Shown: positions 27,217 through 50,527, counted from the first letter of the stretch. The stretch: DNA of 64,000 nt from Candidatus Magasanikiibacteriota bacterium (GCA_021648085.1 JAKITS010000001.1:816064-880063); one strand, 5' to 3'. Numbers and translations are program-made. Notes: generated by a model from the letters alone, not told the origin.

Positions 27217-27313
27217 GTTTAAAATTGAAAAATTTATATATTATTTAAAATGATTTAGTATTTTGTTATTTTTCAAATAATAAAATACCCTCAATTTTTC
27301 AATTGAGGGTAAA

Positions 27314-27394
27314 TACCGGAAACGGGAATCGAACCCGTACGCTTTAAGGCGGGAGATTTTAAGTCTCCTGTGTATACCATTTCACCATTCCGGC
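27314..27394 (-). tRNA. tRNA-Leu (UAA), copy 1
   Basis: minus-strand GCCGGAATGGTGAAATGGTATACACAGGAGACTTAAAATCTCC + long variable arm + CGGGTTCGATTCCCG; anticodon loop CUUAAAA; own promoter (TTGACA-17-TAATTT, minus, about 27420-27455). Confidence 0.8.
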
Positions 27395-27667
27395 ACAAGA
27401 AATTAAAAAATAATGAACTATTTATGAAATTATCATATTTTTTGTTTTTTGTCAATCTTTTTGGATTAAATTTTGGATAAATTATAAAAATAAATATATT
27501 TATTCATTCCCACAACAAAAAAACAGCAATACTGCTGTTTTTGTGCCGCGTTCGAGGGTCTCCCTGTGTAGTTTTGGTTTTCACCAAACCTACCCTTCGA
27601 TTCCCGACATGACACAAGACTTTGTGTCATTCCCACAACAAAAAAACAGCAATACTGCTGTTTTTTG

Positions 27668-27752
27668 TGCCGCGGGCGGGAATCGAACCCGCACTCCTTT
27701 AGGGGGAACAGGATTTTAAGTCCTGCGTGTCTACCAATTCCACCACCGCGGC
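27668..27752 (-). tRNA. tRNA-Leu (UAA), copy 2
   Basis: minus-strand GCCGCGGTGGTGGAATTGGTAGACACGCAGGACTTAAAATCCTG + long variable arm + TTCGATTCCCGCCCGCGGCA; immediately followed by hairpin terminator 27640-27667. Confidence 0.85.
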
Positions 27753-33935: not shown

Positions 33936-34376
33936 CTATTCTTTTTTTGGTGGGAAATGGTGAGGCCACTCCCCAGTATCTCTTTTTACCGCCATTCGCC
34001 AAATGAGATCAGCAACTCTTCCGTTGCCGTCGCAAAAAGGCCATGCGAGCCTAAATTCATTAAAAAGTTCTTCTGGCTTAATCATTGTTAAAAACATCCA
34101 ACAAAAATGTTGGTAAGCTCTTTTTGTGCTAAATTCCGCGCCTTTTGGCTTACGAAAAATTTGTCTATTTTCTTCTGGCTCTATAAGTTTAGCCAGTCTT
34201 ATAATAAAATTTTCTATTTCTCTATTTTTTTCTTTATATCGAGAAGTAGAAAATTTAAACTGCTTTGCTATTCTATAAGCTTTTGTAAAATTTTCTATTT
34301 GATGCAATTCAATAGCACCTCTTTTGGCGCAGCACACCCCAATAATAGCAATATCTTTGTTACTTAGTGCACCCAT
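33936..34376 (-). CDS. Fic/Doc-family-like protein with degenerate active-site motif (WPFCDGNGR instead of HPFx[DE]GNGR)
   Basis: 146 aa; C-terminal LAWPFCDGNGRVADLIWRM matches Fic core but catalytic His is Trp (TGG codon confirmed on DNA). Confidence 0.5.
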   Translation of the reverse strand: MGALSNKDIAIIGVCCAKRGAIELHQIENFTKAYRIAKQFKFSTSRYKEKNREIENFIIRLAKLIEPEENRQIFRKPKGAEFSTKRAYQHFCWMFLTMIKPEELFNEFRLAWPFCDGNGRVADLIWRMAVKRDTGEWPHHFPPKKE

Positions 34377-34775: not shown

Positions 34776-34846
34776 TAAAAAGCTAGGTAATATACCTAGC
34801 TTTTTTATTTGTATCTTCTATTTTTTTAAAGTATAATATAAATTGT

Positions 34847-35887
34847 ATGGAAGATAAATTTGACGCAATAAATATATCAGACGAACGGCTAGTTTCGGCT
34901 GAGCATTCGGAAGATGAAGAAGAGGAGAGAATAGAGGTAAATTTACGACCGTCTAGTCTTTTTGACTTTGTAGGGCAGGACAACATCAAAAAACAGCTTC
35001 ATATTTCTATGGAGGCTGCCAAGCAAAGAGATGAGCCAATTGAACATGTTTTACTTTATGGAAATCCTGGATTGGGTAAAACCACACTTGCTCACATTAT
35101 TTCGAATGAAATGAACTCAAACATAAAGTTGACGGCTGGCCCAGCGTTAGAGAGAGTTGGGGATTTGGCTGCAATTTTATCAAATTTGGAGCGTGGAGAT
35201 GTTTTGTTTATAGACGAAATTCACAGAATGAATAAGACTATTGAGGAGGTTCTTTATAGCGCTATGGAAGATTATGCACTGGATATTATTGTAGGAAAAG
35301 GTCCAGCAGCGAGAACACTGCGAATGCCGTTAGAGAGGTTTACAATAATTGGTGCAACTACAAAAATGAATTTACTTTCCGGACCGCTTCGCGATAGGTT
35401 TGGACATGTTTTTCATTTAAATTTTTACGAACACAAAGATATAGATAAAATTATAAACAGAAATGCAGAAATTTTAGATGTAACAATGGAACCTGGGATA
35501 AGTATGAAAATTTCAGAGAGATCTCGTAGAACACCTCGTGTTGCAAACAGACTTTTGAAGAGGGTTCGTGATTATGCACAAGTAAAAAATGATGGAAATA
35601 TAGACGAAACAGTAATAAGGTCTGCTTTTGAAATGCTTGGTGTAGACAACTACGGGCTAGATGAAGTAGATAGAAAAATATTGTCTGCAATTATAGAAAA
35701 ATTCAAAGGCGGACCTGTTGGTTTGGGAACCTTGGCAGCATCTGTTGCAGAAGATATAGAAACAATGGAGACAATTTATGAGCCATATTTATTGCAAATA
35801 GGCATGTTAGACAGGACACCGAGAGGTAGAACAGCGACACATATTGCAAAAAAACATATTGGAAATACAGATCCAACACTTTTTTAG
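34847..35887 (+). CDS. ruvB: Holliday junction branch migration helicase RuvB
   Basis: 346 aa; Walker A GNPGLGKTTLA, Walker B LFIDEIHRM, sensor and arginine fingers, winged-helix C-term. Confidence 0.95.
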   Translation: MEDKFDAINISDERLVSAEHSEDEEEERIEVNLRPSSLFDFVGQDNIKKQLHISMEAAKQRDEPIEHVLLYGNPGLGKTTLAHIISNEMNSNIKLTAGPALERVGDLAAILSNLERGDVLFIDEIHRMNKTIEEVLYSAMEDYALDIIVGKGPAARTLRMPLERFTIIGATTKMNLLSGPLRDRFGHVFHLNFYEHKDIDKIINRNAEILDVTMEPGISMKISERSRRTPRVANRLLKRVRDYAQVKNDGNIDETVIRSAFEMLGVDNYGLDEVDRKILSAIIEKFKGGPVGLGTLAASVAEDIETMETIYEPYLLQIGMLDRTPRGRTATHIAKKHIGNTDPTLF

Positions 35888-35915: not shown

Positions 35916-36170
35916 ATGATAATTGTTCCACTTTATTTTGCACTTTTTGCCTATCTGTTATTTTTAGTGGGTTTTGTCGTGCTCTTTTTATTAAATGTTT
36001 ATCATATTGTAAGTACTGGAACTTTTTCATTTTGGTCTTTGGCTGTAACATTTTTTACACTTATTTCTATTACTCTAGTTTTGTATCTTACTTGGTTTTT
36101 ACTTCAAGATGTAAATTGGCAAGCACCAATAATTGAGTTTGGAGCAAATTTTTTTAACTTTGAAAAATAA
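35916..36170 (+). CDS. hypothetical small membrane protein (3 TM)
   Basis: 84 aa, almost entirely hydrophobic helices. Confidence 0.4.
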   Translation: MIIVPLYFALFAYLLFLVGFVVLFLLNVYHIVSTGTFSFWSLAVTFFTLISITLVLYLTWFLLQDVNWQAPIIEFGANFFNFEK

Positions 36171-36738
36171 TATGCATATCGCATTTCTAATAAATAAAAA
36201 ACCCAATGAAAAGATTTTATATGTCCTGAAAAGGCATAGTATAACTTTTGTTCCTTTTTTATTTCTATTTTTGATTTTGGTAATTTTGCCAGTTGCGGTT
36301 TATCTTTTGTTTTTAAACTTAGAGCCAAATGTTTTGACTGGTGATATTTTATATCCGTTATTAGTTCTTCTTGGGAGTATTTATTATTTGGGTATCTTCC
36401 TATTTTTCTATAGTAATTTTACAGATTTTTATCTTGATGTTTGGATAATTACAGATGATAGAATTATAGATATAGAACAACATGGACTTCTTGCTCGTAG
36501 TACTTCTGAAACAGAATTACACAGAATTCAAGATGTGACAGACGAGGTAAAAGGAATTTTTCCAACACTTTTTAAATATGGAAATGTAATAGTAAAAACT
36601 GCATCAGACACACAGGACATTGTTTTTAGAAATGTTCCATTTCCTGGTAAAATTCGTGGAGAACTTATCAAACTTGCACGACAAGATAGAAGAAATCACT
36701 TAATGCATAAATCAGAACTTGAAAATAAGGAAAAATAA
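36133..36738 (+). CDS. membrane-anchored bacterial PH-domain (DUF304/YdbT-like) protein
   Basis: two TM helices then ...WIITDDRIIDIEQHGLL...GNVIVKTASDTQDIVFRNVPFP... resembling bPH_2; probable true start ATG at 36172. Confidence 0.45.
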   Translation: MSLEQIFLTLKNNMHIAFLINKKPNEKILYVLKRHSITFVPFLFLFLILVILPVAVYLLFLNLEPNVLTGDILYPLLVLLGSIYYLGIFLFFYSNFTDFYLDVWIITDDRIIDIEQHGLLARSTSETELHRIQDVTDEVKGIFPTLFKYGNVIVKTASDTQDIVFRNVPFPGKIRGELIKLARQDRRNHLMHKSELENKEK

Positions 36739-36740
36739 AT

Positions 36741-37043
36741 ATGGATTTTTTTGTAAAGTGGTTTTTGGACCACACACTTTTGGCGCAAATCTCAATAATT
36801 TATTTGGTAATTATAAATATTGCTACATTTTTTTATTTTGGATTAGACAAAATAAAAGCGAGCTTGGCTCAAAGGCGAATTAGTGAAAAAAAACTTTGGA
36901 CACTTTCGTTAATTGGTGGATCTTTGGGTGGACTTTTGGGAATGTATTTTTTTCGTCATAAAACAAAAAAACTTTCTTTTCAGGTAGTAATAGGAATAAT
37001 TTTAGCAACTCAAGTTTGGTTGGTTGTTTGGTTTTTGAGGTAA
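36741..37043 (+). CDS. DUF1294-family membrane protein
   Basis: 100 aa; YFGLDKIKA...RRISEKKLWTLSLIGGSLGGLLGMYFFRHKTKK pattern typical of DUF1294. Confidence 0.5.
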   Translation: MDFFVKWFLDHTLLAQISIIYLVIINIATFFYFGLDKIKASLAQRRISEKKLWTLSLIGGSLGGLLGMYFFRHKTKKLSFQVVIGIILATQVWLVVWFLR

Positions 37044-37165
37044 AAAATTTAAATATATTAAAAATTAGCATTTTTTTGCTAATTTTTTAGTTTTATAAAA
37101 ATTGACTTTTGGTTATTTTTATTTTAAATTTAAATAGGATCTTTTTATAGACAAAAGGGGTAAAA

Positions 37166-37648
37166 ATGGAAAAACAGAAAATTTTCTACTGTTTTTTGTG
37201 TCAAAAAAAATCTGAACAAAATACCTTATGCACTTCTTGTAATATCATTAGTAAAGGTTTAGGTATTGTTGTATTATTCACTGTATTTTTTTCTGGATGT
37301 TTTGTTAGTAGTCCGCCATCGTGGTTTGGTGGTGCTGTTAGTATTTGTTTTGTTTTGAGTATAGTTTTTTTGTGGCCTATTTTTTTGATAAGCTTTATAA
37401 AAAATATGACAACAAAAGAGGAATTTAATGAAATTAATGTTGGTAAATTTGCTGAAAAATATAACACATTGTTTAGGACATTTTTTATCGCTGTTATATT
37501 TATTTTATTATTGTTAATTGCGGTATTTTTTGCTCCAAATCCATTTTTTAGTATTTTTGTTGGAACAGTCATGGCAATAGTAGTCTTGTTTGTGGGTAGT
37601 ATTTTTTTATTATTAGCTTTGGCAATCCAACACACAAAAAATATATAA
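37166..37648 (+). CDS. hypothetical membrane protein with N-terminal C4 zinc-ribbon-like motif
   Basis: CFLCQKK...CTSC then 4 TM helices. Confidence 0.4.
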   Translation: MEKQKIFYCFLCQKKSEQNTLCTSCNIISKGLGIVVLFTVFFSGCFVSSPPSWFGGAVSICFVLSIVFLWPIFLISFIKNMTTKEEFNEINVGKFAEKYNTLFRTFFIAVIFILLLLIAVFFAPNPFFSIFVGTVMAIVVLFVGSIFLLLALAIQHTKNI

Positions 37649-37748
37649 TTTATAAATCTTTAAGTTTATGTTTTTTGTATTGACTTTTTGCTATTTTTTT
37701 GTTTATATTTAAATTAGATCTTTTCATATTCAAAAAAAGGAGTCAAAA

Positions 37749-38084
37749 ATGAATAAATATAAAACTATTTTTTGGTTTACATCTTTTTTAGTATTTTTTT
37801 TGGGTTTTTTAATTGTTTTAATTTTGTATTTAAATAACACACAGGAAATAACGAAATATAGTGTAGAAATTAGAAATGAGTGTATGAATGATGACCGTCT
37901 TTTGAAAGTTGAAAGTGAAAAAGTTTTTAAAACAAATACTTTGGCTTGTTGTGGGGTTTGCTCATTGAAATATAAGGTTATCTCTAACGGAAAAGAATGT
38001 ATAGCTTTATATTTAAATAATGAAGAAGATGATTATAAATGGTATGAAAAAATAGAATGTCCTTTTGAAATTTTAGAAAACTAA
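37749..38084 (+). CDS. hypothetical membrane-anchored Cys-rich protein
   Basis: 111 aa; N-terminal TM, six Cys in C-terminal half; hairpin terminator 38087-38115. Confidence 0.4.
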   Translation: MNKYKTIFWFTSFLVFFLGFLIVLILYLNNTQEITKYSVEIRNECMNDDRLLKVESEKVFKTNTLACCGVCSLKYKVISNGKECIALYLNNEEDDYKWYEKIECPFEILEN

Positions 38085-38113
38085 AAAAACCGCCAATTTT
38101 GGCGGTTTTATTT

Positions 38114-38359
38114 TTAGCAATACTTTTCTCTTCTTTTTACTAATTGTTCATATGCAATTTCTGGGCTTATTGTTTTAAAAAATGCATCTTCTGACAGTTT
38201 TTTCAACTGTTCGTCTGTAGCGCAACCTATTAACATATTTATGACACTTTCTAGTAAAATATAGCATGGATTTTTTTCACCATCAAACACGGCTGTCAGC
38301 ATTTTTTTGGCCATAAGGTCTAGAGTGTGTTCTACTAATTTGTCTTTTTCTTTACACAT
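38114..38359 (-). CDS. hypothetical small soluble protein
   Basis: 81 aa, helical, no recognisable family. Confidence 0.35.
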   Translation of the reverse strand: MCKEKDKLVEHTLDLMAKKMLTAVFDGEKNPCYILLESVINMLIGCATDEQLKKLSEDAFFKTISPEIAYEQLVKRREKYC

Positions 38360-38449
38360 TTTTTCTCCTTTTTGTTTGTAAGGATCTGCTTATAATTTAA
38401 CTTTAAAATATAAAAAAGTCAACGAAACACTTGACAAACTCCACCTTTT

Positions 38450-38749
38450 TTGTTAATGTTTATCGAAGTTCTTTTTAAAAATACATTTGGAGGTTATATG
38501 ATTTTGGCGTGTGGTGGTGCTGGTCCTGGTATGAATTCACAAAATATGCTGTTGACAGAAATAGAGATTAGACAAATTGCTAGAAAATATGGCTTTAAAA
38601 AATGGCGAACTGCAGAATTAGGTGTGTTGTGTAATTTTGTACAAAATGAAACAGAGTATTTTAAATATTTTGGTTATTTTGAGGTGAGGTCTGGTATGGA
38701 AGAGTTGGTTAATATTTTATTAAAAAATAAAATAAACTTTACTTTTTAA
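38450..38749 (+). CDS. hypothetical small protein
   Basis: probable start at 38498 (MILACGG) after GGAGG RBS. Confidence 0.35.
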   Translation: MLMFIEVLFKNTFGGYMILACGGAGPGMNSQNMLLTEIEIRQIARKYGFKKWRTAELGVLCNFVQNETEYFKYFGYFEVRSGMEELVNILLKNKINFTF

Positions 38750-38778
38750 ATTAAATCAAAACACAAAAGGAGGGAATC

Positions 38779-38997
38779 GTGGCATATATTAATTACAGGG
38801 ATAGAGATGTTGAAGAGGTTCGAAGTGTCCTTCAGGACTTGTGTCACAGGGCAGAGTCTGAGCAAGAGCTTCGAACAGAACTTTATTTATTGTTCGGGAG
38901 CAGAGTAATATCTGTTCAGTGTATTCAAAATAAAAATCGACCAATGTTTATAGCAAAGGTGTGTAGCCCAATTTTGGGCAAGACTATCTCAACTTAA
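38779..38997 (+). CDS. hypothetical small protein (GTG start)
   Basis: 72 aa; RBS AAAGGAGGG 7 nt upstream of GTG. Confidence 0.35.
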   Translation: MAYINYRDRDVEEVRSVLQDLCHRAESEQELRTELYLLFGSRVISVQCIQNKNRPMFIAKVCSPILGKTIST

Positions 38998-39113
38998 AGT
39001 GTAAACAGTCTTTTTTAAAAAGGCTGTTTTTTTATTTCACAAAAAGTTATCAACACTCTCTTTTTTTATTTAAAAATGGTAAAATAATAATGCTAGATAT
39101 AAATCCATAAAGC

Positions 39114-41468
39114 TTGTCGGCTGTTATGAATCATCAGTTTGGAGATGAAACTATAGATTTTGTTTCTCTGGAGGAGGGGGAGATTAGCAAGAAATTAAAG
39201 GACTATAATATTGCCCTTACTTTTGAGGAAGGGAGAAAAATTCAACAAGATTTTTTAGGTAGAGCACCATACATTTCAGAATGCGTGCTTTGGTCTATTC
39301 AAGGTTCAGAACACTGCTCTTACAAGAGCAGTCGTTTATTTTTAAATCAGTATATTACCGATGGGCCAAATGTAATTTTGGGTCCAACTGAAGATGCTGG
39401 GATTATAGAAATTGCAAAAGATAAAAACGGAGGCAAATATGGTTTGGTAATAAGTCATGAGTCACACAACCATCCATCCCAGATTGTGCCTTATGAAGGT
39501 GCAGCAACTGGAATTGGTGGAAATGTCCGTGATGTCTCTTGTATGGGCGCAAAAGTAATTGCTGGAGCAGACGCACTTCGTTTTGGTGAGATAGAAAAAC
39601 AAAAAACAAAATATATTCAAAATGAGGTTGTAAAAGGAATTGCAGGATATGGAAATCCAATTGGTGTGCCAATAATTGCAGGCGATACCTATTTTAATAA
39701 AGGTTATAATGACAATTGTTTGGTAAATGTTGTTCATCTTGGAGTTTTGAAAGAGGATGAAATTATACATTCTAAAGCTCCAAAAAATGCAGACGGTTAT
39801 GATTTGATTTTGGTGGGAAAAGCAACTGATAACACAGGTTTTGGTGGGGCACAGTTTGCATCGCTAGAATTGGAAGAAGATAAAAAAGAACAAAATAAAG
39901 GGGCCGTACAAGAACCGAACGCATTTCTAAAAAAACACTTACTCAAAGCAACTCATACTTTGGTAAAAAAATTAAAAAAATTAAACTTATTGAATAGGGT
40001 TGGGCTCAAAGATTTGGGCGCTGGTGGAATTAGCTGTGCAGCAGTAGAATTGGCCGATAGCGCTGGATATGGAGTAGAAGTGGATATGGACAAAGTTCAG
40101 TTTGGAATGGAGGGTTTACACCCAACTGTGGCGCTTTGTTCGGAAACTCAAGAAAGATATATGTGGGTGGCATGTCCAATTGCGACGCCAATAATTTTGG
40201 AACATTACAACAAGATTTTTGAATTGCCAAAAATGGCAAAAAATGCAAAAGCAACCGTAATAGGGAAAATAAAAAATGGTGGACAATTTGTGGTGAAACA
40301 CAAAGGAAGAGATATAATAAATGCAAAAGCAAGTGATATTACAAAAGGTTTGCTTTATGAGAGAAAATATAAAAAACCAGAATTTACACTTAAAAAACCA
40401 AAAATAAAAAATGAAGGCGGTTTGAATCAGATTTTTTTGAAAATTTTATCGCACGAAAATATAGCTTCAAAAAAAGTAATTTACGAGAGATATGACAAGC
40501 AAGTTCAAGGTGCAACAGTTGTTGAGCCTGGCGAAGCAGATGCTGGCGTGGTCCAGCCATTTTTGGATACTGATTTTCCAGACGAGATAAAAAATGTTGG
40601 TGTAGCACTTTCTGTGGATCATAACCCCAGGTTTGGGCTTATAGATTCGTATTGGGGAGCAGTAAACGCTGTGGCTGAAGCTATGAGAAATGTGACGGCT
40701 GTTGGTGCTGTGCCACAAGCTATTACAAATTGCTTAAATTATGGAAATCCAGAAAAAGAAGAGCAGATGTTTCAATTTGTAGAAGGTATAAAAGGAATTG
40801 CAAGGACTTGTAAAAATATTCATTTAAAAAATCATCCAAATTCACCAATTCCAATTATTTCTGGAAATGTTTCACTTTATAATGAGTCTGATGATGGCGC
40901 TATTCCACCAAGTCCAGTCATTGCTTGCGTTGGAAAAATAGAAGATGTTTCAAAAGTTATAAAAATGAGCTTTAAAAAAACGGGAAGTAAAATTTTTATG
41001 GTTGGGAAGCGAAGAGAAGAGTGTGGTGGAAGTGTTTATTTTGATATTTTTGGTGAGCTTGGTGCGATTGTTCCAAAAGTAAACTTCAAAGAATTGGAAA
41101 ATCAAATTTTTGCAATGACAGACGCTATAGAAGGGCGTTTAATTTTAAGTGCACACGATATAAGCGATGGTGGAATTGCTATAGCACTTGCAGAAATGAC
41201 TTTTCAAAATGAAATTGGATGTGAGGTTGAAATAAAATCAGACTTTTCAAGTGATAGAATTTTGTTTGGTGAAACCGGAGGTTTTGTAATAGAAGTTTCA
41301 GAAGAAAATGAAAAGCAGTTAAAAGAAATTTTTACAGAAAGAAATACAGGTTTGTTTGAAATAGGAAAAACAATAAAAAGAAAGAGGATTTTGATAAATA
41401 AAAAAATTGAAATTGAACTGGAAAGCGCAAAAAATGCTTGGGAAAATGGATTGAGAAGTAAATTGTAA
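39114..41468 (+). CDS. purL: phosphoribosylformylglycinamidine synthase II (large subunit)
   Basis: 784 aa; PurL motifs (ISHESHNHPS, GIGGNVRDVSCMGAKVIA, duplicated AIRS-like domains). Confidence 0.9.
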   Translation: MSAVMNHQFGDETIDFVSLEEGEISKKLKDYNIALTFEEGRKIQQDFLGRAPYISECVLWSIQGSEHCSYKSSRLFLNQYITDGPNVILGPTEDAGIIEIAKDKNGGKYGLVISHESHNHPSQIVPYEGAATGIGGNVRDVSCMGAKVIAGADALRFGEIEKQKTKYIQNEVVKGIAGYGNPIGVPIIAGDTYFNKGYNDNCLVNVVHLGVLKEDEIIHSKAPKNADGYDLILVGKATDNTGFGGAQFASLELEEDKKEQNKGAVQEPNAFLKKHLLKATHTLVKKLKKLNLLNRVGLKDLGAGGISCAAVELADSAGYGVEVDMDKVQFGMEGLHPTVALCSETQERYMWVACPIATPIILEHYNKIFELPKMAKNAKATVIGKIKNGGQFVVKHKGRDIINAKASDITKGLLYERKYKKPEFTLKKPKIKNEGGLNQIFLKILSHENIASKKVIYERYDKQVQGATVVEPGEADAGVVQPFLDTDFPDEIKNVGVALSVDHNPRFGLIDSYWGAVNAVAEAMRNVTAVGAVPQAITNCLNYGNPEKEEQMFQFVEGIKGIARTCKNIHLKNHPNSPIPIISGNVSLYNESDDGAIPPSPVIACVGKIEDVSKVIKMSFKKTGSKIFMVGKRREECGGSVYFDIFGELGAIVPKVNFKELENQIFAMTDAIEGRLILSAHDISDGGIAIALAEMTFQNEIGCEVEIKSDFSSDRILFGETGGFVIEVSEENEKQLKEIFTERNTGLFEIGKTIKRKRILINKKIEIELESAKNAWENGLRSKL

Positions 41469-41782
41469 TTTTTCTTTTTTATCCTAACCTCCCGAACATT
41501 TGAAATTTTTGGACTAATTTATTTTTAAAACTTATGGTTTTCTGAGTATACAAAAAATAATTGAAGTAGCAAATGCGGTCAATTAAATAAGTTTTAAAAA
41601 TAAATTAAGCCTAAAATTGTCAACCGTTCGGCACTTTTATTTACCTTTTGGTGTCAAAAGGTAAGGTGAGAACATTTTTATGTTATCGTTAAAGAAGCTT
41701 TACTTAAATAACATGTTTAAGGGATTTCTCACTTTGTTCGAAATGAAAGAAGTCTAAAGCTTACAAGCTAATTTATAAATTT

Positions 41783-42823
41783 ATGACCATCACTTATGAA
41801 TTTTCCGGTGTAAATATAGATGTCGGAAATGAGGCTGTAAAAAGAATAAAAAATAAAGTTACGAGCACTTTTTCGCAATCTGTTTTGACTGGAATTGGCA
41901 GTTTTGGTGCTATGTATGATTTGAAAAATCTTTGTGAAAAATATAATAATCCAGTTTTGGTGCAAAGTATAGACGGAGTTGGCACAAAACTCATGATCGC
42001 AAAAATGATGAATAAATATGACACAGTTGGAGAAGACATTGTAAATCATTGTTGTGGTGATATTTTGACAATTGGCGCAAAACCACTAACTTTTTTGGAT
42101 TATATTGCCACCGCAAAAATGGATCCACAAATTATAGAAGATATTGTAAGTGGAATGGTGAGGGCTTGCAAAGAAAATGATATTTCACTTGTTGGTGGGG
42201 AAACTGCAGAAATGCCTGGAGTTTATGTAAATGGTGAAACAGATATTGCAGGTTCAATTACTGGAGTGGTAGAAAAAAATAAACAAATTATTGGAAAAAA
42301 CATAGAAGAAGGTGATTGTGTTTTGGGTTTTACCTCGAGCGGACTGCATACAAATGGATACTCATTGGCCAGAAAAATACTTTTTGAAGTTGGAGGTTTG
42401 AGTGTTCATAGTAATTTGTCGGAATTAGACAGAAGTTTGGGGGAAGTTTTGCTTGAGCCTCATAAAAATTATACAAAACCAGTGTTTTTACTTTTGAATT
42501 TTGGAATAAATATAAAAGGAATTGCACATATTACTGGCGGAGGAATGTTGGAAAATATTCCAAGAATTTTGCCAGAAAATTGTGCTGTAAAAATTCAAAA
42601 GGGAAGTTGGCAGGTTTTACCAATTTTTACTTTGATGCAAAAAATTGGAGGTGTTGTCGAGGAAGAAATGTACAGAACATTTAATATGGGTATTGGAATG
42701 GTTTTAATTTTATCAAAAAATGAAGTAGAAAATGCGATAAACTTAATAAATAAAAGTTTTCCTGATTATAAAATTTGTGAAATTGGAAAAGTAGTAAAAA
42801 GGGAAGGGCAAGTAATTTTATGA
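41783..42823 (+). CDS. purM: phosphoribosylformylglycinamidine cyclo-ligase (AIR synthetase)
   Basis: 346 aa; VQSIDGVGTKLMIA, GGETAEMPGVY motifs; stop overlaps next start (ATGA). Confidence 0.9.
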   Translation: MTITYEFSGVNIDVGNEAVKRIKNKVTSTFSQSVLTGIGSFGAMYDLKNLCEKYNNPVLVQSIDGVGTKLMIAKMMNKYDTVGEDIVNHCCGDILTIGAKPLTFLDYIATAKMDPQIIEDIVSGMVRACKENDISLVGGETAEMPGVYVNGETDIAGSITGVVEKNKQIIGKNIEEGDCVLGFTSSGLHTNGYSLARKILFEVGGLSVHSNLSELDRSLGEVLLEPHKNYTKPVFLLLNFGINIKGIAHITGGGMLENIPRILPENCAVKIQKGSWQVLPIFTLMQKIGGVVEEEMYRTFNMGIGMVLILSKNEVENAINLINKSFPDYKICEIGKVVKREGQVIL

Positions 42824-45543
42824 GAATAGCAATAATACAATTTCCTGGAAGTAACTGTGAAGCAGAAACAATAAGAGCAGTGAACAAAGCTGGAATGCAG
42901 GCTGAATCTGTTTTTTGGAATTGTAATTATGAAAAATTAAAAGAATACGATGGTTTTGTAATTGTCGGCGGATTTTCTTATGAAGACAGATCGCGCGCTG
43001 GGATTATTTCTGCACTCGATCCAATTATGAAAGTAATTTTTGAGGAGTCTGCAAAAGGTAAACCAATTTTGGGAATTTGTAATGGCGCCCAAATTTTGGT
43101 GGAAAGTGGTTTGGTGCCCGGAATTGAAAATAAAAAAGTTGCGCTTGCAATAAATCAGCAAATAAAAGAGGGGTATGTGGTGGGAACAGGATTTTTCAAT
43201 GATTGGGTAAATATAAAAGTGTCAGCAAAATGTGCATTTACAACTAATTTGAAAGAAGGAGAAATTTTGAGAATTCCTGTGGCGCACGCAGAAGGTCGTT
43301 TTGTTTTTCCGCTTATTTTTTTGAGTGAGTTGGAAGAGTCTGGATGCACAACTTTTAAATATTGTGATAGTAGTGGGGAAGTTAGAGATGATTTTCCTAT
43401 AAATCCAAACGGATCAATTGCAAATTTGGCAGCCATTTCAAATAAAGATGGAAATGTAATGGCAATAATGCCTCATCCAGAAAGATGTGAGGAAGGTCAG
43501 ATTATTTTTATTTCTATGCGAGAGTATATAAGACAAAATAAACAGAATTTTTTGAAATTTGCGGAGGTAAAAAATAATTTTCAGGAAAAAATTGAATTAA
43601 AAGAATACAAATTGCAAAAAAATAAGTATGAAATAATAGTGGAAGAAATAATTACAGATAACGAATCTTATACTGTGGAGCAAACATTAAAAAATTTGGG
43701 AATAAATGCAAAAATTTCAAAGCAAATTCATTGGGAGATTGAATGTGAAAATATTTCAAAAGAAGATTTAACTCAAACTGGTGAATTTTTTAACACAAAT
43801 AAGGAAAAATTGGCAGAAGAAAATTATGAAGATAATTTTCTGTTGGTTCAGTATAAGGATGATATTTACGGAGTAGAAAAAAAGGAAAATTTAGAGAAAA
43901 ACCATGGAATTATTGGTTTAAAAAAAATCAAAAAAGGAATTCTTTGGAATATCACTTTGGATAATAAAACAGAATTAAAATCAGTTTTGAAAACAGGTAT
44001 ATTTTATAATAAAAATTCACAAAATTGTTATTTATATTCAAAATCTATGAATAATTTTCCAATAAGCGGATACGCTTCAGATTTGTATAGTGAAATAATT
44101 AGTAAAAACATACATAATTATTTGTCAGATACAAACTTAAATCTTCAAAACAAGAAAAAAGGGAAAGTCCGCGATATTTATGATTTGGATAATAATTTAT
44201 TAATTGTAACTACAGATAGGCAAAGTGCTTTTGATAGGGTGTTAACGCATATTCCTTTCAAGGGACAAGTTTTAAATCAGACTAGTCTTTGGTGGTTTGA
44301 CCAAACTCAACATATTATTCCAAATCACATAATTCATAGTCCGGATTCAAATGTGATTTTGGTAAAAAAATGTGAACCGTTTAAAGTGGAGATCATTGTG
44401 AGAGGTTATATAACCGGAACGACGAGTACTTCTGCGTGGACAAATTATGAAAAAGGAATTAGAAATTTTTGTGGAAATTGCTTGCCAGAAGGAATGGTAA
44501 AAAATCAAAAATTTGAAGAGCCAATTGTCACACCAACCACAAAAGATGAGTACGATGAATCTATTTCAGCTAAGCAAATAGTAGAGAGGGGTTTGATGAG
44601 TCAGGAAGATTGGGATTATGTTTACAAAAAAGCATTAGAAATTTTTACTTTTGGACAAAGAATAGCCAAGCAAAATGGATTGATTTTAGTGGATACAAAA
44701 TATGAATTTGGAAAAGCACAAGATGGAACTATAATATTGATAGACGAAGTTCACACGCCGGACTCAAGTAGATATTGGATCGCTAGAACTTATGAGGATA
44801 GATTTGCGAGTGGACAGGAGCCAGAAAATATAGATAAGGAATTTTTGCGTTTGTGGTTTATTGAAAATTGTAATCCGTATGAAGATGAAAATTTACCAGA
44901 AGCACCAAAAGATTTAGTTGTAGAGCTTTCTCGTAGATACATTCGTTTGTACGAGATGATTACAGGAAAAGAATTTAAATTTCCAGATATGACTTTGAAT
45001 TTGCATAATAGAATTCAGGAAAATTTAAAAAAATATACTGCAAAAAAAGTGGAATCTACTTATGCAAATATTGGATTGGAAGAAATAAAAAGTGAAGAAA
45101 TTCATAAAGAAAAAATAAAGCCAGAAATTGAAAAAATAACTATAAAACCAAAAGCAATTTTAATTTTGGGTTCAATTTCAGACGAAGAATTTACAAAAAA
45201 TATTACAGATGAATTGGAAAAATACGGAATTAATTTTGAGCAATTTGTAGCTTCTGCTCATAAACAACCACGAGAAGTTTTACAGATTTTAGATAATAAT
45301 AAAGATAAAAAGCAGATAGTTTATATTACAATTGCGGGGCGTTCCAATGCTTTGTCTGGTTTTGTTGCTGGAAATTCTAGCTTTCCTGTGATAGCGTGTC
45401 CACCACTCAAAGATAAGTTTGATATGATGGTAAACATAAATTCATCTCTTCAAATGCCAAGTAATGTTCCGGTTTTGACAATTTTGGATCCAAAAAATAC
45501 AGCACTTGCGGTAAAAAGAATTTTTGATTTATGTGTGGAATAG
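42820..45543 (+). CDS. four-domain fusion: FGAM synthase glutaminase (PurQ) + PurS-like region + SAICAR synthetase (PurC) + class II AIR carboxylase (PurE)
   Basis: 907 aa single ORF; N-term MRIAIIQFPGSNCE...GICNGAQIL (PurQ triad Cys/His); middle PurS-like ferredoxin-like repeat(s); GKVRDIYDLDNNLLIVTTDRQSAFD (PurC); C-term ILGSISDE...SAHKQPRE...AGRSNALSGFVAGNSSFPVIACPP (class II PurE signature, like animal PAICS). Confidence 0.85.
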   Translation: MRIAIIQFPGSNCEAETIRAVNKAGMQAESVFWNCNYEKLKEYDGFVIVGGFSYEDRSRAGIISALDPIMKVIFEESAKGKPILGICNGAQILVESGLVPGIENKKVALAINQQIKEGYVVGTGFFNDWVNIKVSAKCAFTTNLKEGEILRIPVAHAEGRFVFPLIFLSELEESGCTTFKYCDSSGEVRDDFPINPNGSIANLAAISNKDGNVMAIMPHPERCEEGQIIFISMREYIRQNKQNFLKFAEVKNNFQEKIELKEYKLQKNKYEIIVEEIITDNESYTVEQTLKNLGINAKISKQIHWEIECENISKEDLTQTGEFFNTNKEKLAEENYEDNFLLVQYKDDIYGVEKKENLEKNHGIIGLKKIKKGILWNITLDNKTELKSVLKTGIFYNKNSQNCYLYSKSMNNFPISGYASDLYSEIISKNIHNYLSDTNLNLQNKKKGKVRDIYDLDNNLLIVTTDRQSAFDRVLTHIPFKGQVLNQTSLWWFDQTQHIIPNHIIHSPDSNVILVKKCEPFKVEIIVRGYITGTTSTSAWTNYEKGIRNFCGNCLPEGMVKNQKFEEPIVTPTTKDEYDESISAKQIVERGLMSQEDWDYVYKKALEIFTFGQRIAKQNGLILVDTKYEFGKAQDGTIILIDEVHTPDSSRYWIARTYEDRFASGQEPENIDKEFLRLWFIENCNPYEDENLPEAPKDLVVELSRRYIRLYEMITGKEFKFPDMTLNLHNRIQENLKKYTAKKVESTYANIGLEEIKSEEIHKEKIKPEIEKITIKPKAILILGSISDEEFTKNITDELEKYGINFEQFVASAHKQPREVLQILDNNKDKKQIVYITIAGRSNALSGFVAGNSSFPVIACPPLKDKFDMMVNINSSLQMPSNVPVLTILDPKNTALAVKRIFDLCVE

Positions 45544-48296
45544 TAGGGATTTATTCTCAAAAGTCAGTTTCATTGGATTTGTGTGATGCACTCATCCATC
45601 TTCAGCATAGGGGTACAGATGCTGGCGGTATGCTCACTTATGATTCTAGATTTCATACTAAAAAAGGAATGGGTTTGGTAAGAGATATCTTTAAAGAAAA
45701 TATCTTAAAAAATTTAACAGGAAATTGGGGGATTGCAAATAATAGATATACAACAACAGGATCTTCAAAAAAACTTTTCAATGTTCAGCCATTTAAAACC
45801 AGTTCTCCTTATGGAATTTCTTTGGTGCATAATGGAAATATTACAAATTCACAAGTATTAAAAAAAGAATTGGAAGAGCAAAATAAATATTATTGTAATT
45901 CTGAGTCTGATACAGAAATTATTTTGGGTTTGTTTGCATCTGAATTGCAAAAAAATAACGAAGGATTAGATTTTTTTGATAATTTGTGTAAATCAGTTGA
46001 GGCTGTTTTTGATAAAGCTTATGGAGGGTATTCAATTGTGGGAATTATCGCAGGAAAAGGAATGTTTGCTTTTAGAGATCCAAATGGAATCAGACCTTTT
46101 GTCTGGGGAAAAAGAGAAAATGAAAATGGACAAAGTGATTTCATTTTTTCTTCTGAAAATACAATGTATCATACTTTAAATTTTAAAATGCAGGGAAATG
46201 TTTTGCCTGGAGAAGTAGTTTTTATCAACAAAAAAGGTGAGATGTGCAGAAAACGTTTGCGAAAAGAAATTTTTACACCGTGTGCTTTTGAATATGTTTA
46301 TTTGGCAAGGCCGGATGCGGTGATAAATAGTATAAGTGTTTATAGAGCAAGACTTAGAATGGGAGATAATTTGGCAAAAAAATGGAAAAGATTTTATCCA
46401 GACATAACGCCAGATATTGTGATTCCTGTTCCATTTTGTGCAAATACTATGGCACTTTCTGTGGCACATATTTTGAAAGTTCGATATTCTGAAGGTTTGC
46501 ATAAGAATTCTTTTGTTGGGCGTACTTTCATAATGCCTGGACAAGAAAAGCGTAGAAAGTCTGTTTTACAAAAATTATCACCTCAAGAATTGGAAATTAA
46601 AGGTAAGAATGTAATGCTTGTCGACGATTCAATAGTTCGTGGGACAACAAGTAAAGAGGTAGTTAAAATGGTTCGAGGTGCTGGCGCAAAAAAAGTATAT
46701 TTTGTATCCGCTTCGCCACCTATAAAATATCCAGATTTTTATGGTATTGATATTTCCACCCAACAAGAATTGATTGCTGCAAACAAATCTATGGAAGAAA
46801 TACGCCAATTTATGGATGTAGATGTTTTACTTTATCAAGATATAGAAGATTTGACAGAAGCCATCACGAGAAAAGGAAATCACAGTATAGATAGACTTTC
46901 TATGCCATATTTTGATGGTTGGTATGTGACTGGAGTTGTAAATAAAATCCAAGAAAAAAAAGAAAAAAAAGTAAAAAAAATATTGATAGTTGGTTCTGGA
47001 GCGCGCGAACATGCAATTTTGCGAGCATTTTTGCGTTCAAAACAAAAAATTTCACTATATTGTTTTGGGACCAGTTTAAATATAGGAATAAAAAACTATT
47101 GTGTAGATTATATGGTTGGAAAAATGACTGACATAGGACAAATTTTGGATTTTGCGAAAAATAATAATATAGACCTTATAATTATTGGGCCAGAAATACC
47201 GCTGAATGCTGGACTTGCAGATTTGTTGTGGAAAAATAATATTCCAACTGTTGGTCCTACAAAAAAACTTGCACAACTTGAGACGAGTAAGTCGTTTACA
47301 AGAAAATTGATGGAAAAATATGGAATTAGCGGTCTTCCAAAATATAAAATTTTTAATTCGACAGAAGGAGTTGGGGAATTTCTATATGAATTGGATGGAA
47401 ATTATGTAATAAAAGTAGATGGATTGATGGGTGGAAAAGGAGTAAAAGTTTCTGGCGAACATTTGAAAAATTTTGAGGAAGCTTTGGAATATTGCAGAGA
47501 AATTATAAGTAAAAAAAGTAGTTTTGTAATAGAGGAAAAATTTATTGGTCAGGAATTTTCTTTAATGAGTTTTTCAGATGGGATAAATTTAGCACATATG
47601 CCAGTTGTACAAGATCATAAAAGAGCTTTTGAAAATGACAAAGGGCCAAATACTGGTGGAATGGGAAGTTATTCTTGTGCAGACCATTCACTTCCTTTTT
47701 TGACTGAGAAAAATGTTCAAAAAGCAAAAGGAATTACGCGTTCAATTTTGAATGCATTAAAAAAAGAATTTGGTGAATTGTATAAAGGAATTCTGTATGG
47801 CGGATTTATGGTTACAAAGAATGGTATAAAAGTAATAGAATATAATGTTCGTTTTGGTGATCCAGAATCTCTGAATGTTCTAAGTCTTTTAGAGTCAGAT
47901 TTTGTAGAAATTTGCGAAGGGATAACGAGTGGAAGGTTAGATAAGTGCGATATAAATTTCGCAAAAAAAGCTACTGTTTGTAAATATGCTGTACCAATTG
48001 GATATCCAACAAAACCCGTAAAAGGAGAAAAAATTGACATTTCCGAGGTGAAAAATCAAGAAAATTTATATTTGGCTTCTGTGGATTTGTTAAATGGTGA
48101 TTTAATTGAAATAGGATCGCGTACTACAGCATTTGTGGGAATTGCGAATACAGTTTTTGAGGCTGAAAAAGAAGCAGAAAGTGAAATTCAAAAAATAAAA
48201 GGTCCGCTTTTTCACAGGAAAGACATTGGAAAAGAGGAAACTATAGAAAACAAAATTAAATTTATGGAAAAAATATGCAATCAGAAAAAAAACTAA
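45531..48296 (+). CDS. fusion: amidophosphoribosyltransferase (PurF) + GAR synthetase (PurD)
   Basis: 921 aa; N-term MCGIVGI Ntn-amidotransferase, PRTase motif VMLVDDSIVRGTTS; from about aa 480 KKILIVGSGAREHAIL and ATP-grasp (PurD). Confidence 0.9.
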   Translation: MCGIVGIYSQKSVSLDLCDALIHLQHRGTDAGGMLTYDSRFHTKKGMGLVRDIFKENILKNLTGNWGIANNRYTTTGSSKKLFNVQPFKTSSPYGISLVHNGNITNSQVLKKELEEQNKYYCNSESDTEIILGLFASELQKNNEGLDFFDNLCKSVEAVFDKAYGGYSIVGIIAGKGMFAFRDPNGIRPFVWGKRENENGQSDFIFSSENTMYHTLNFKMQGNVLPGEVVFINKKGEMCRKRLRKEIFTPCAFEYVYLARPDAVINSISVYRARLRMGDNLAKKWKRFYPDITPDIVIPVPFCANTMALSVAHILKVRYSEGLHKNSFVGRTFIMPGQEKRRKSVLQKLSPQELEIKGKNVMLVDDSIVRGTTSKEVVKMVRGAGAKKVYFVSASPPIKYPDFYGIDISTQQELIAANKSMEEIRQFMDVDVLLYQDIEDLTEAITRKGNHSIDRLSMPYFDGWYVTGVVNKIQEKKEKKVKKILIVGSGAREHAILRAFLRSKQKISLYCFGTSLNIGIKNYCVDYMVGKMTDIGQILDFAKNNNIDLIIIGPEIPLNAGLADLLWKNNIPTVGPTKKLAQLETSKSFTRKLMEKYGISGLPKYKIFNSTEGVGEFLYELDGNYVIKVDGLMGGKGVKVSGEHLKNFEEALEYCREIISKKSSFVIEEKFIGQEFSLMSFSDGINLAHMPVVQDHKRAFENDKGPNTGGMGSYSCADHSLPFLTEKNVQKAKGITRSILNALKKEFGELYKGILYGGFMVTKNGIKVIEYNVRFGDPESLNVLSLLESDFVEICEGITSGRLDKCDINFAKKATVCKYAVPIGYPTKPVKGEKIDISEVKNQENLYLASVDLLNGDLIEIGSRTTAFVGIANTVFEAEKEAESEIQKIKGPLFHRKDIGKEETIENKIKFMEKICNQKKN

Positions 48297-50524
48297 AAAT
48301 TGGAGTTTTGGGTTCAACTCGCGGAACGAGTATGCAGCCTATAATAGACGCAATCGAACAGAATTTGTTGAAGGCATCTGTAGAATTGGTTGTTTCTAAT
48401 GTTGAAAATGCTTTTATATTAAAAAGAGCAAGAATGTGTGGAATAGCCGCAACATACATAAATGATTTTGGGAAAAATCGTGAAGATTATGATAAAGAGG
48501 TTTCAAAAATTTTTGAATCTTTTGAGGTTGATTTGGTTTTATTGATTGGATATATGAAGATATTATCCCAATTTTTTGTTCAGAAATGGGCTGGAAAAAT
48601 TATGAATGTCCACCCTTCACTTTTACCAGCTTTTACAGGAAAAATGGATGAACAAGTTCATTACGATGTCTTAGTTTCAGGAGATAAAGAGAGCGGTTGT
48701 ACAATTCACTTTGTAGATGAGGGGGTAGATTCTGGCGACATAATCATACAAAAAAAGTGTTCAGTTTTGTCGCACGATACAGTAATTTCTCTGAAAGACA
48801 AAGTTCAGAAATTGGAGGGCAAAGCTTTCATAGAAGCAATAAAAGAATTTGCGAATGGTAGTATTTTATCTTACAATAGTGAGGTTCAAGATCAAATACA
48901 AAATAGGAGTGTGGAGATGTGTGGAAAAACAGCCCTTTTGTCAGTTTACAATAAAACAGATATAGATATTTTTGCGCGCAAACTTATTTATCTTGGTTGG
49001 AAAATTGTAGCTTCTGGCGGAACAGCAAGATTTCTAAAAGAGCGGGGAATTGAAGTTCAGGATGTTGCAGATTTTGTTGGAGGCGGGGCAATTTTAGGGC
49101 ATAGAGTTGTGACATTGGATAGAAAAATCCACGCAGCACTTTTGTCTAAAGATTTGCCAGAAGATAACGAAGAGCTAAAAAGACTTGGTGTACCAAAAAT
49201 TGATTTGGTTTGTGTGGATCTTTATCCCTTGGAAGATGAGATCTCTTCTGAAGGAAGTACACAAGAATCTGTAATAGAAAAAACTGATATTGGCGGGCCG
49301 ACACTGCTCCGCTCCGCCGCAAAAGGTAGAAGAATTGTTGTTTGTGATTTTGAAGATAGAGACAAAACGTTGAAATGGCTTGCGATGGGTAAACCATACG
49401 AAAATAAGTTCATTACAAATTTGGTTGCAAAAACCGAAGAGATTGTTGCTAGATATTGTCTAATTTCTGCAAATTTTCATAGTGAAGGAAAAATAAAAGG
49501 AATAGTTGGTTTTGAGAGGCAAAAATGTGGTTATGGTGAAAATGCACAACAAAAAACAGCAAGTTTGTTAACTTACAAAAATAACGATCCTTTGAGTTTT
49601 AATAATTTTAAACAGGTTCGTGGTGTGCCAATGAGTTATAATAATTGTTGTGATGTAGATAGAATGGTTCAAACAATAACCCATATCGCAGCTGGTTTTG
49701 ATATAAATTTTGGCGAGGTTCCCTTTATTGCAGTTGCTGTAAAACACGGAAATCCATGTGGTGTAGCAATTGGAGAAGACAAGAAAATAGTTCTACAAAG
49801 AGTAATTGACGGTGATCCACGTGCAATTTTTGGAGGAATGATTATGACAAATTTTTCATTGGGTGTAAATGATACTGAGGTTATTTTAAACTATAAAATG
49901 GAAAAAGGAGGCAATAGACTTTTGGATGGGGTGGTTGCGCCTGCAATAGATGAAAATACAAGAGATTTACTAAAAAGACGAACTGGGCGTTGTAGAATGG
50001 TAGAAAATCCAGCTTTAGCAGAAATGTATTCAGGCAGTTTGGATAAAAATCCTAGGTTTCGTTATGTGAGAGGGGGATTTTTGCTGCAAGATAATTATGA
50101 TTTTGTAATGAATTTTACAAATACAGTAATTGAAAAACAAGGTATTATTTCAGAAGACATTGAAAAAGATTTAATTCTAGCTTGGGCTATTGGTTCAACA
50201 AGTAATAGTAACGCAATAACTTTGGTAAAAAACAGAATGTTGATTGGAAATGGTGTTGGTCAGCAAGATAGAGTTGGGGCTTGTGAACTTGCTATCAAAA
50301 AAGCCACAGACCAAGGACATTTGATTGTGGATTCCGTAGCTTATAGTGATAGCTTTTTCCCATTTTTAGATGGACCAGAAAAACTGTATGAAAGTAGAGT
50401 TAAAGCAATTCTAACTTCTAGTGGGTCTGTGCGAGATAAAGATCTGAAAGATTTTTGTCTAGTAAATGGAATTACACTTTATATGATCCCGGATAAAATA
50501 GGCAGAGGTTTTTTTGGACATTAA
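48275..50524 (+). CDS. fusion: GAR transformylase (PurN) + bifunctional AICAR transformylase/IMP cyclohydrolase (PurH)
   Basis: 749 aa; N-term KIGVLGSTRG...HPSLLPAFTG (PurN), then MGS-like LLSVYNKTDI...ASGGTARFLKERGI and AICARFT domain (PurH). Confidence 0.9.
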   Translation: MQSEKKLKIGVLGSTRGTSMQPIIDAIEQNLLKASVELVVSNVENAFILKRARMCGIAATYINDFGKNREDYDKEVSKIFESFEVDLVLLIGYMKILSQFFVQKWAGKIMNVHPSLLPAFTGKMDEQVHYDVLVSGDKESGCTIHFVDEGVDSGDIIIQKKCSVLSHDTVISLKDKVQKLEGKAFIEAIKEFANGSILSYNSEVQDQIQNRSVEMCGKTALLSVYNKTDIDIFARKLIYLGWKIVASGGTARFLKERGIEVQDVADFVGGGAILGHRVVTLDRKIHAALLSKDLPEDNEELKRLGVPKIDLVCVDLYPLEDEISSEGSTQESVIEKTDIGGPTLLRSAAKGRRIVVCDFEDRDKTLKWLAMGKPYENKFITNLVAKTEEIVARYCLISANFHSEGKIKGIVGFERQKCGYGENAQQKTASLLTYKNNDPLSFNNFKQVRGVPMSYNNCCDVDRMVQTITHIAAGFDINFGEVPFIAVAVKHGNPCGVAIGEDKKIVLQRVIDGDPRAIFGGMIMTNFSLGVNDTEVILNYKMEKGGNRLLDGVVAPAIDENTRDLLKRRTGRCRMVENPALAEMYSGSLDKNPRFRYVRGGFLLQDNYDFVMNFTNTVIEKQGIISEDIEKDLILAWAIGSTSNSNAITLVKNRMLIGNGVGQQDRVGACELAIKKATDQGHLIVDSVAYSDSFFPFLDGPEKLYESRVKAILTSSGSVRDKDLKDFCLVNGITLYMIPDKIGRGFFGH

Positions 50525-50527
50525 AAA

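Follow-up and report, generated by a model that had tools for sequence, protein, structure and literature searches.

A 3-kb run of small genes between ruvB and a pur cluster in a Candidatus Magasanikiibacteriota genome: a probable composite of a conserved ruvB-operon end and variable insertion-site cargo

Positions 35916-38997 of a 64,000-nucleotide (nt) window from a Candidatus Magasanikiibacteriota bacterium (GCA_021648085.1 JAKITS010000001.1:816064-880063) hold eight small open reading frames (ORFs), here termed g1 to g8, which lie between ruvB and a pur cluster. An initial annotation, made by a model from the sequence, had regarded the eight as a single accessory or lineage-specific module. 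Our analysis indicates that this 3-kb stretch probably combines two parts unrelated to each other, one (35916-37043) being the conserved 3' end of the ruvB transcription unit and the other (37044-39030) the cargo of an insertion site. The genes, with lengths in amino acids (aa) and predicted transmembrane (TM) segments, are the following.

34847..35887, plus strand: ruvB, 346 aa, NCBI Holliday junction branch migration DNA helicase RuvB (MCF6277015.1), leading gene of the transcription unit to which g1-g3 belong
35916..36170, plus strand: g1, 84-aa small membrane protein with two TM segments, putative partner of g2 (NCBI hypothetical protein L3J07_04215)
36172..36738, plus strand: g2, 188 aa, two N-terminal TM segments and a C-terminal bPH_2 domain (formerly DUF304), YdbS-like architecture (NCBI PH domain-containing protein)
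36741..37043, plus strand: g3, 100-aa DUF1294 membrane protein, last gene of the ruvB unit (NCBI DUF1294 domain-containing protein)
37166..37648, plus strand: g4, orphan of 160 aa, N-terminal motif CxxC-x9-CxxC, four hydrophobic segments
37749..38084, plus strand: g5, 111 aa, N-terminal signal-anchor TM segment and six conserved Cys
38114..38359, minus strand: g6, 81-aa soluble protein
38498..38749, plus strand: g7, 83-aa orphan, first gene of the g7-g8 unit (NCBI hypothetical protein L3J07_04245)
38779..38997, plus strand: g8, orphan ORF of 72 aa starting with GTG, the least secure gene call among the eight

All eight ORFs lie at or near the positions first assigned to them, and codon usage favours the proposed frame in each case. 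With log-odds scores derived from the codon usage of 23 long window ORFs, they reach 0.12-0.34 bits per codon in these frames and stay below zero in the others. The genes are indeed smaller than the flanking core genes, and neither Pfam nor NCBIfam places any of them in a named housekeeping family. A bacterial PH domain in g2 and DUF1294 in g3 were recovered by Pfam above the cut-offs; apart from these two domains, Pfam, NCBIfam, PADLOC and PHROGs returned nothing for the eight proteins. The description as unannotatable goes too far, since GenBank names g2 'PH domain-containing protein' and g3 'DUF1294 domain-containing protein'. A predicted protein with a TM segment and several Cys is g5 (one TM segment, six Cys), a CxxC-x9-CxxC motif, a putative zinc ribbon, is visible in g4 together with four hydrophobic segments, and the GTG start with a strong ribosome-binding site belongs to g8 (GGAGG 5 nt before the GTG). 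Three details of the initial annotation had to be revised. g1, taken for a peptide with three TM segments, shows two long ones in its alignment; the start of g2 moves from a TTG at 36133 (201 aa) to the ATG at 36172 (188 aa), as ortholog alignments and the NCBI protein indicate; and g6 is on the minus strand. Tight packing holds for g1-g2-g3 (1 nt from the g1 stop to the g2 start, 2 nt from the g2 stop to the g3 start) and not for g4 to g7, where the gaps measure 29-138 nt. Composition does not set the stretch apart from core genes. The long genes of the window have a mean GC content of 33% and a GC content at third codon positions (GC3) of 0.22 +/- 0.04; GC3 of g1-g7 is native-like (0.17-0.26; 0.18-0.26 for g4-g7) and g8 alone deviates (0.36). 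Neither paralogs of g1-g8 nor similarity among them were found in the window.

Gene order, conservation, selection, domain matches and the positions of regulatory signals of g1-g8 were read directly from the window and from a set of related loci, 80 retrieved by RuvB alone and a further 35, from metagenomes, by g2. The window RuvB is closest to those of metagenome-assembled genomes (MAGs) of Candidatus Magasanikbacteria and other Patescibacteria of the candidate phyla radiation (CPR), with 90% identity in L001, L081 and L082 and 64-75% in named Magasanikbacteria. When the window proteins were compared by tblastn with the 80 RuvB-fetched loci, g2 was found in 35, g1 in 21 and g3 in 10, each directly downstream of ruvB on the same strand. 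With the g2-fetched loci included, a g2 homolog follows ruvB on the same strand at a distance of 0.23-1.1 kb in 54 loci, and in about 50 of these the gap between ruvB and g2 holds a single ORF of 65-111 aa with two to three predicted hydrophobic segments. RuvB identity across the loci with the order ruvB-g1-g2 falls from 90% to 53%, and these loci belong to Magasanikbacteria, Uhrbacteria, Buchananbacteria, Parcubacteria and other Patescibacteria. The order was not seen in the Clostridia, Erysipelotrichaceae, Saccharibacteria and Moranbacteria loci of the set. g3 follows g2 in 19 loci, all with a RuvB identity of at least 66%, and represents an optional third membrane gene of Magasanikbacteria. 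L081 (RuvB 90%) has no g3; there, a 650-aa fusion of a dTDP-glucose 4,6-dehydratase-like (RmlB) and an RmlD-like protein (2947-4899) stands directly after g2 and replaces g3 and everything beyond; the break point there lies after g2, not after g3.

A scan found no terminator-like site between ruvB and the end of g3. Ratios of nonsynonymous to synonymous substitution (dN/dS) against the sister lineage L082 are 0.08 for RuvB, 0.12 for g1, 0.16 for g2 and 0.18 for g3, which indicates purifying selection. Pairs of a g1-like and a g2-like gene also occur apart from ruvB or in loci lacking it (L023, L028, L052, L107, L109, L113). The linkage of g1 to g2 is thus independent of ruvB, since the pair is kept where ruvB is not adjacent or is separated from it by insertions. 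In one Magasanikbacteria MAG (L010, ~10619-10950) a free-standing GIY-YIG nuclease ORF (109 aa, PF01541, E 2e-13) is located between the g1 and g2 homologs and may be a mobile element resembling a homing endonuclease.

An alignment of 32 g1 homologs consists of two TM blocks joined by a loop with the motif N-x-Y-H, in which H30 is at least 90% conserved; W68, usually within D/N-W, is invariant and follows TM2. Pfam matched no family in any of the 32. Arg or Lys in the loop of many homologs suggests, by the positive-inside rule, that the loop is cytoplasmic. g2 matches bPH_2 (PF03703) with 33 bits (cut-off 22, E 7e-8) over profile positions 6-76 of 78, and the PHROGs family phrog_3707 'membrane-flanked domain' with E 4.5e-6. 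Its PH domain comprises residues 91-163 of 188 and is preceded by two hydrophobic stretches that are conserved in orthologs; a sequence search of the PDB gave no match for g2. g3 covers the full DUF1294 model (PF06961, positions 1-55) with 80.1 bits (cut-off 25, E 1.4e-22).

In most relatives g3 faces a convergent efp-epmA at close range; the distance is 83-387 nt in L002, L004, L005, L007, L010 and L014. Other loci carry cargo at this junction: a Fic gene with others in 3.5 kb (L012), a transketolase gene (L089), and orthologs of g5 and g6 (g5', g6') together with a PAS gene (L082/L083). In the window, 13.5 kb separate g3 from efp and are made up of g4-g8, an 11-kb pur cluster and a PAS gene, so that g8 is followed by purL, purM, three fused pur genes, the PAS gene, efp and an epmA-like gene. 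L082 and L083 show a 113-nt spacer between g3 and g5' where the window has g4, and a 127-nt spacer between g6' and the PAS gene where the window has g7, g8 and the pur cluster. In these two loci g4, g7 and g8 are missing and g5 and g6 are present; all five are missing in L081 and in more distant Magasanikbacteria. The junction between the ruvB operon and efp-epmA is a recurrent insertion site, occupied here by four small transcription units (g4, g5, g6, g7-g8) and the pur cluster. Direct repeats flanking 36900-51200 were limited to A+T-rich chance matches, no integrase was found in the region, and the nearest tRNAs lie at ~27.7 kb and ~53.1 kb of the window.

The signals around these genes are listed below.

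34777-34805, upstream of ruvB: terminator-like hairpin, from the scan
37060..37087, plus strand: A+T-rich hairpin with a T run, AAAAATTAGCA-TTTTTT-TGCTAATTTTT, read from the sequence, likely end of the ruvB-g3 transcript
37102..37130, plus strand: promoter-like site of g4, TTGACT, 17 nt, TAAATT; resembles the upstream regions of g5 and g6 (repeats D7, I7)
37680..37709, plus strand: promoter-like site of g5, TTGACT, 18 nt, TATATT; an equivalent TTGAC-type site precedes the L083 ortholog
38086..38109, both strands: bidirectional intrinsic terminator, 10-bp stem (5 G-C pairs), a T run on either strand, shared by the convergent g5 and g6
38422-38394, minus strand: promoter-like site of g6, TTGACT, 17 nt, TAAATT
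39003..39029, plus strand: terminator after g8, from the scan, followed by the conserved purL promoter region

The hairpin at 37060..37087 was not flagged by the scan, having fewer than three G-C pairs; a hairpin is found at the same place in the L083 spacer. The regions upstream of g4, g5 and g6 are built alike, and so are those of the g5 and g6 orthologs in L083: a hairpin comes first, then TTGAC(T/C), a spacer of about 17 nt and a box like TAAATT or TATATT; a short leader leads to an A/G-rich Shine-Dalgarno sequence, after which the start codon follows. The distance from promoter-like site to gene is 35-60 nt for g4, g5 and g6, and the L083 spacers have retained such sites. All five cargo genes have a Shine-Dalgarno sequence, including AAGGGG before g4 and GGAGG 4 nt before the g7 ATG and 5 nt before the g8 GTG. 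g5 and g6 are 29 nt apart and share their terminator; the other gaps among g4-g7 measure 100-138 nt and contain promoter-like sites and terminators. Terminator-like sites number 9 in the region as compared to 1.7 +/- 1.5 in shuffled sequences. Judged from these predicted signals, there are at least five transcription units: ruvB-g1-g2-g3, g4, g5, g6 on the minus strand, and g7-g8.

The five cargo genes fall into two sorts. g5 and g6 are real genes that evolve fast and are restricted to the lineage; purifying selection on them is relaxed but persists. The g5 ortholog in L082/L083 is 46% identical and keeps all six Cys and the C-terminal half; dN against L082 is 0.40 and dN/dS 0.30. An exhaustive HMMER search of 1.84 billion representative proteins found exactly one homolog of g5, the sister ortholog P0121 (110 aa, 45% identity). 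g6 has an 82-aa ortholog in L082/L083 with ~45-47% identity, in which the Cys residues of the window g6 are not kept (dN 0.47, dN/dS 0.29 against L082), and no family match in Pfam, NCBIfam, PHROGs or PADLOC. For both genes dN is 6-7 times that of RuvB, and their neighbours are 75-90% identical in L082. g5 is most likely a membrane-anchored extracytoplasmic protein stabilised by disulfides or metal, as its positive N-terminus, single TM segment and six conserved Cys suggest; g6 is probably a small cytoplasmic helical protein.

For g4, g7 and g8 no homologs were found in a word-indexed search of 5.8 billion proteins (g5-g8 concatenated, g4 alone) or in 119 related loci. Pattern scans of metagenomes and IMG/VR with g4-g8 concatenated gave nothing, two of the six 8-mers spanning artificial junctions, and tblastn of g4-g8 against 50,697 phage records and against plasmid records gave nothing either. 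g4 is a predicted zinc-ribbon-like membrane protein with four TM segments; its Cys pattern is C9-x2-C12-x9-C22-x2-C25, and its best Pfam match, zf-B_box_Trim66 (E 0.03, 14.5 bits), stays below the cut-off of 27. NCBI annotates g4 with a different start, as implied by a gap in the accession numbers. g7 has a codon score of 0.34, and its single-sequence AlphaFold2 (AF2) model is unusable (predicted local distance difference test, pLDDT, 60). The single-sequence model of g8 is compact with moderate confidence (pLDDT 76); fold-search matches are marginal, with nothing in BFVD below an E value of 0.08. We take g4, g7 and g8 to be orphans unique to this genome and, most likely, young or very rapidly diverging genes with surface or accessory functions.

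Other identities considered for g7 and g8 were rejected. The ILAC motif of g7 does not make it a lipoprotein: its Cys is at residue 5, with no signal peptide before it. Both genes lie just upstream of a small-type purL, but neither is a diverged PurS, as PF02700 gave no match even at E values up to 1 and relatives have no small gene there. A structured non-coding RNA or riboswitch at g7-g8 was equally dismissed, RNA folding z-scores being -0.8 (g7) and -1.4 (g8) and Rfam, run at gathering as well as E-value thresholds, giving only sub-threshold leader matches on terminator hairpins.

The surroundings of the stretch offered further observations. The pur cluster (39114-50524), a compact set for de novo purine biosynthesis, consists of purL, purM and three fusions, purQ-purC-purE (907 aa), purF-purD (921 aa) and purN-purH (749 aa), and is missing from this position in L082/L083. 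Other Magasanikbacteria have the order folD-purA-purL-x-purM-purQCE-purB-purF; purA, purB, folD and purS are not detectable in the 64-kb window. The purL-purM spacer (315 nt) contains a 32-nt inverted repeat (41504-41535 / 41587-41618), 91% complementary with 51 nt between its arms, and the equivalent spacer of L117 holds a 153-aa minus-strand ORF. Upstream of g1 are found nrdA/nrdB, an SPFH gene, two small orphan genes and ruvB. These two orphans, just upstream of ruvB (33936-34376, minus strand, and 34461/34515-34775, plus strand, for which a GGAGG at 34502 suggests the start at 34515), have no Pfam match and are 47-53% identical to their L001/L082 counterparts, as compared to 90% for RuvB. 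They evolve fast, and such small genes therefore flank the ruvB operon on both sides. Further upstream lie two tRNA-Leu(UAA) genes on the minus strand, 27313-27395 and 27667-27752, 270 nt apart.

That all eight genes belong to one accessory, lineage-specific module between ruvB and pur, serving envelope stress or toxin and immunity or left by a phage, appears hardly credible. Such a module would account for the small size of all eight, for TM segments in five of them and for their lack of a named housekeeping family, and the accessory character claimed at first does hold for g4-g8, which are missing elsewhere or limited to the sister lineage. It does not hold for g1-g3, a clade-wide tail of the ruvB operon. 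Conservation and synteny split the stretch here: dozens of genomes keep g1-g3 with ruvB and not g4-g8, g5 and g6 are known from the sister lineage only, and for g4, g7 and g8 the databases searched gave no homolog. Moreover, the genes make up at least five separate transcription units on both strands, and their composition is native-like except for g8. Nothing points to a phage remnant, as PHROGs returned only the bPH domain, the phage and plasmid searches were empty, and neither flanking repeats nor an integrase or tRNA were found. A toxin, immunity or defence role found no match in PADLOC, Pfam or NCBIfam; an envelope role is plausible for g1-g2, by analogy with YdbS/YdbT. It is likewise doubtful that g7-g8 is a two-gene system of small proteins (a toxin and its antitoxin, say, or a regulator and a partner protein) that arrived with the pur cluster or sits beside it. 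The two are co-oriented, 29 nt apart, each with GGAGG 4-5 nt before its start, and a terminator follows g8 with none between them; L082/L083 have neither gene at the syntenic site, nor the pur cluster, and g8 has a predicted fold of moderate confidence. However, the pairing proposed in the initial annotation stems from adjacency, no toxin, antitoxin or defence family matched, and searches of limited sensitivity found no homolog of either gene and hence no conserved pairing. Other Magasanikbacteria pur clusters have folD-purA upstream of purL, and L116, whose PurL is 89% identical, has no g8 sequence in the 219 nt upstream of purL; ~39040-39090 of the window aligns with that L116 sequence, in contrast to the g8 coding region. 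The structure model of g7 is poor, and the g8 fold matches are marginal. The demonstrably conserved pair of the stretch is g1-g2.

Several points weigh against the composite reading and what we build on it, and some of them favour a possible, if rather unlikely, alternative, namely that one or more of g4, g7 and g8 are non-functional, being chance or decaying ORFs or transcribed spacer. No homologs of the three were found. The codon score of g4 (0.15 bits per codon) is about tied with that of an antisense shadow ORF; g8 has a GC3 of 0.36 and the lowest codon score of the eight, and is apparently unannotated in GenBank, the accessions of g7 (MCF6277022) and PurL (MCF6277023) being consecutive. 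By our own estimate, a 72-codon open frame arises by chance with a probability of ~0.05 (250 nt, 40% GC, six frames). On the other hand, each ORF scores best in its own frame, g7 and g8 have canonical Shine-Dalgarno spacing and g4 has AAGGGG; g4 also has a promoter-like site, and a terminator follows g8, not g7. g4 has a coherent layout of putative zinc ribbon and four TM segments as opposed to its N/K/T-rich, low-complexity antisense ORF, and g8 yields a compact model. No RNA structure signal was found. The negative searches for g4, g7 and g8 have limited power, because the word-indexed search also missed the real g5 ortholog and the exhaustive search covered g5 only. For g4, insertion here and deletion in the relatives are indistinguishable. 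Promoter-like hexamers are no more frequent here than in shuffles of this A+T-rich DNA (19 as compared to 20.8), and the individual promoter calls therefore rest on position and conservation; expression of g1-g8 is predicted. As to the first part of the stretch, the linkage of g1-g2 to ruvB could have a functional cause, the pair working with RuvB and, for instance, anchoring branch migration or the recombination of incoming DNA at the membrane. In its favour, the order ruvB-g1-g2 occurs in at least 50 loci down to 53% RuvB identity, steadier than any other neighbour, and the pair is not beside ruvB in non-CPR loci. We nevertheless regard this as highly doubtful, because g1-g2 is also found in the absence of ruvB; L010, L023 and L028 tolerate 0.6-3.7 kb of inserted sequence between ruvB and the pair, Pfam detected no DNA-binding feature, and those bPH_2 proteins that have been studied have peptides or the envelope as their targets (PMC8657885, PMC3498285). 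The proposal of a g1-g2 complex itself draws on adjacency and co-occurrence, and its analogy to the YdbS/YdbT and DdE/DdF pairs is loose, as g2 has no YdbT-like partner with several PH domains.

The composite of a conserved ruvB-operon end and insertion-site cargo is, with these reservations, the reading we prefer. In the first part, g1 and g2, which invariably accompany each other, would form one stoichiometric membrane complex. g2 would be anchored by its TM hairpin, its PH domain facing the cytoplasm and probably assembled into an oligomeric ring, which has been proposed for membrane PHb proteins; PHb domains form such rings and in membrane families are predicted to be intracellular (PMC2817789). 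g1 would contribute a second TM hairpin bearing the conserved His and Trp. By analogy with YdbS/YdbT and DdE/DdF, the only relatives studied so far, such a complex would most likely act on small amphipathic or hydrophobic peptides at the membrane or help to keep the envelope intact, and it probably has no role in recombination. In the second part, the fast evolution, lineage restriction and predicted membrane or surface location of g4-g8 fit accessory cell-surface roles. Such roles are plausible for episymbiotic CPR bacteria. A bolder view, in which g1-g2 is an undescribed, CPR-clade-specific membrane machine coupled to RuvB (linking, for instance, the processing of incoming or recombining DNA to the membrane of ultra-small episymbionts) and, separately, the g3-efp junction is a cradle of newborn genes with g4, g7 and g8 arisen de novo, seems to us improbable.

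The practical outcome is a corrected annotation, in which three of the eight genes are clade-wide conserved ruvB-operon genes and five are variable cargo. New and modestly interesting is the arrangement ruvB-g1-g2(-g3), which had escaped notice and in which a bPH protein has a small partner from a new family. A second finding of similar weight is the insertion hotspot with orphan genes. Neither is surprising, and current understanding is not overturned by any of these findings. The ruvB operon-efp junction offers a clean natural case of repeated insertion at one site in CPR genomes, and g4, g7 and g8 are candidates for studying the origin of young genes. Since g1-g2 is conserved in genomes of ~1 Mb, its function is arguably important.

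Comparison with known systems places the two parts of the stretch differently. g4-g8 resemble orphan small genes at variable inter-operon sites, being short, homolog-poor and fast-evolving (dN/dS ~0.3) at a junction with variable cargo. They are unlike a classical horizontally acquired genomic island, as their composition is native except for g8 and mobility genes and repeats are missing. g3 agrees with DUF1294 over the full 55-residue model and stands alone, unfused; among the papers naming this family there is no functional study. g2 resembles YdbS of the YdbS/YdbT pair of Bacillus subtilis and Staphylococcus aureus (COG3402/COG3428) in its positive N-terminus, two TM segments and one bPH_2 domain, a likeness known from the Pfam domain alone, and g1-g2 resembles the pair as a tight two-gene membrane unit. 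g1, with 84 aa, two TM segments and no PH domain, is unlike YdbT, which has six TM segments and three PH domains; by Pfam, g1 and g3 have no PH domain, and a YdbT-like partner with several was not found beside g2. Thus g2 is a member of bPH_2, whereas its membership in a pair of YdbS/YdbT type is not established, its partner being without PH domains. ydbST is part of the sigma-W regulon (PMC3498285), whereas g1-g2 is probably co-transcribed with ruvB and not placed under an extracytoplasmic function (ECF) sigma factor. In S. aureus exposed to pleurocidin and pexiganan, loss-of-function mutations in ydbT and ydbS were selected (bioRxiv 10.64898/2026.07.05.736553). Small paired membrane bPH proteins are also encoded in leaderless-bacteriocin loci, namely DdE/DdF (EntDD14), Orf7/Orf8 (aureocin A53) and LnqC/LnqD (lacticin Q) (PMC8657885). 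Export of EntDD14 needs both DdE and DdF (PMC8657885), and the handling or export of small hydrophobic peptides by such pairs is the only experimentally supported role of this architecture. Unlike these loci, the surroundings of g1-g2 contain no recognisable bacteriocin-like peptide, ABC transporter or immunity gene, and g1 itself differs from leaderless bacteriocins in being far more hydrophobic, longer and conserved like a housekeeping gene. Set beside these systems, g1-g2 may represent a simple, widely conserved, minimal-genome version of the poorly understood PH membrane proteins of YdbS/YdbT type, with a new partner family, and is a reasonable structural target for the role of bacterial membrane PH domains.

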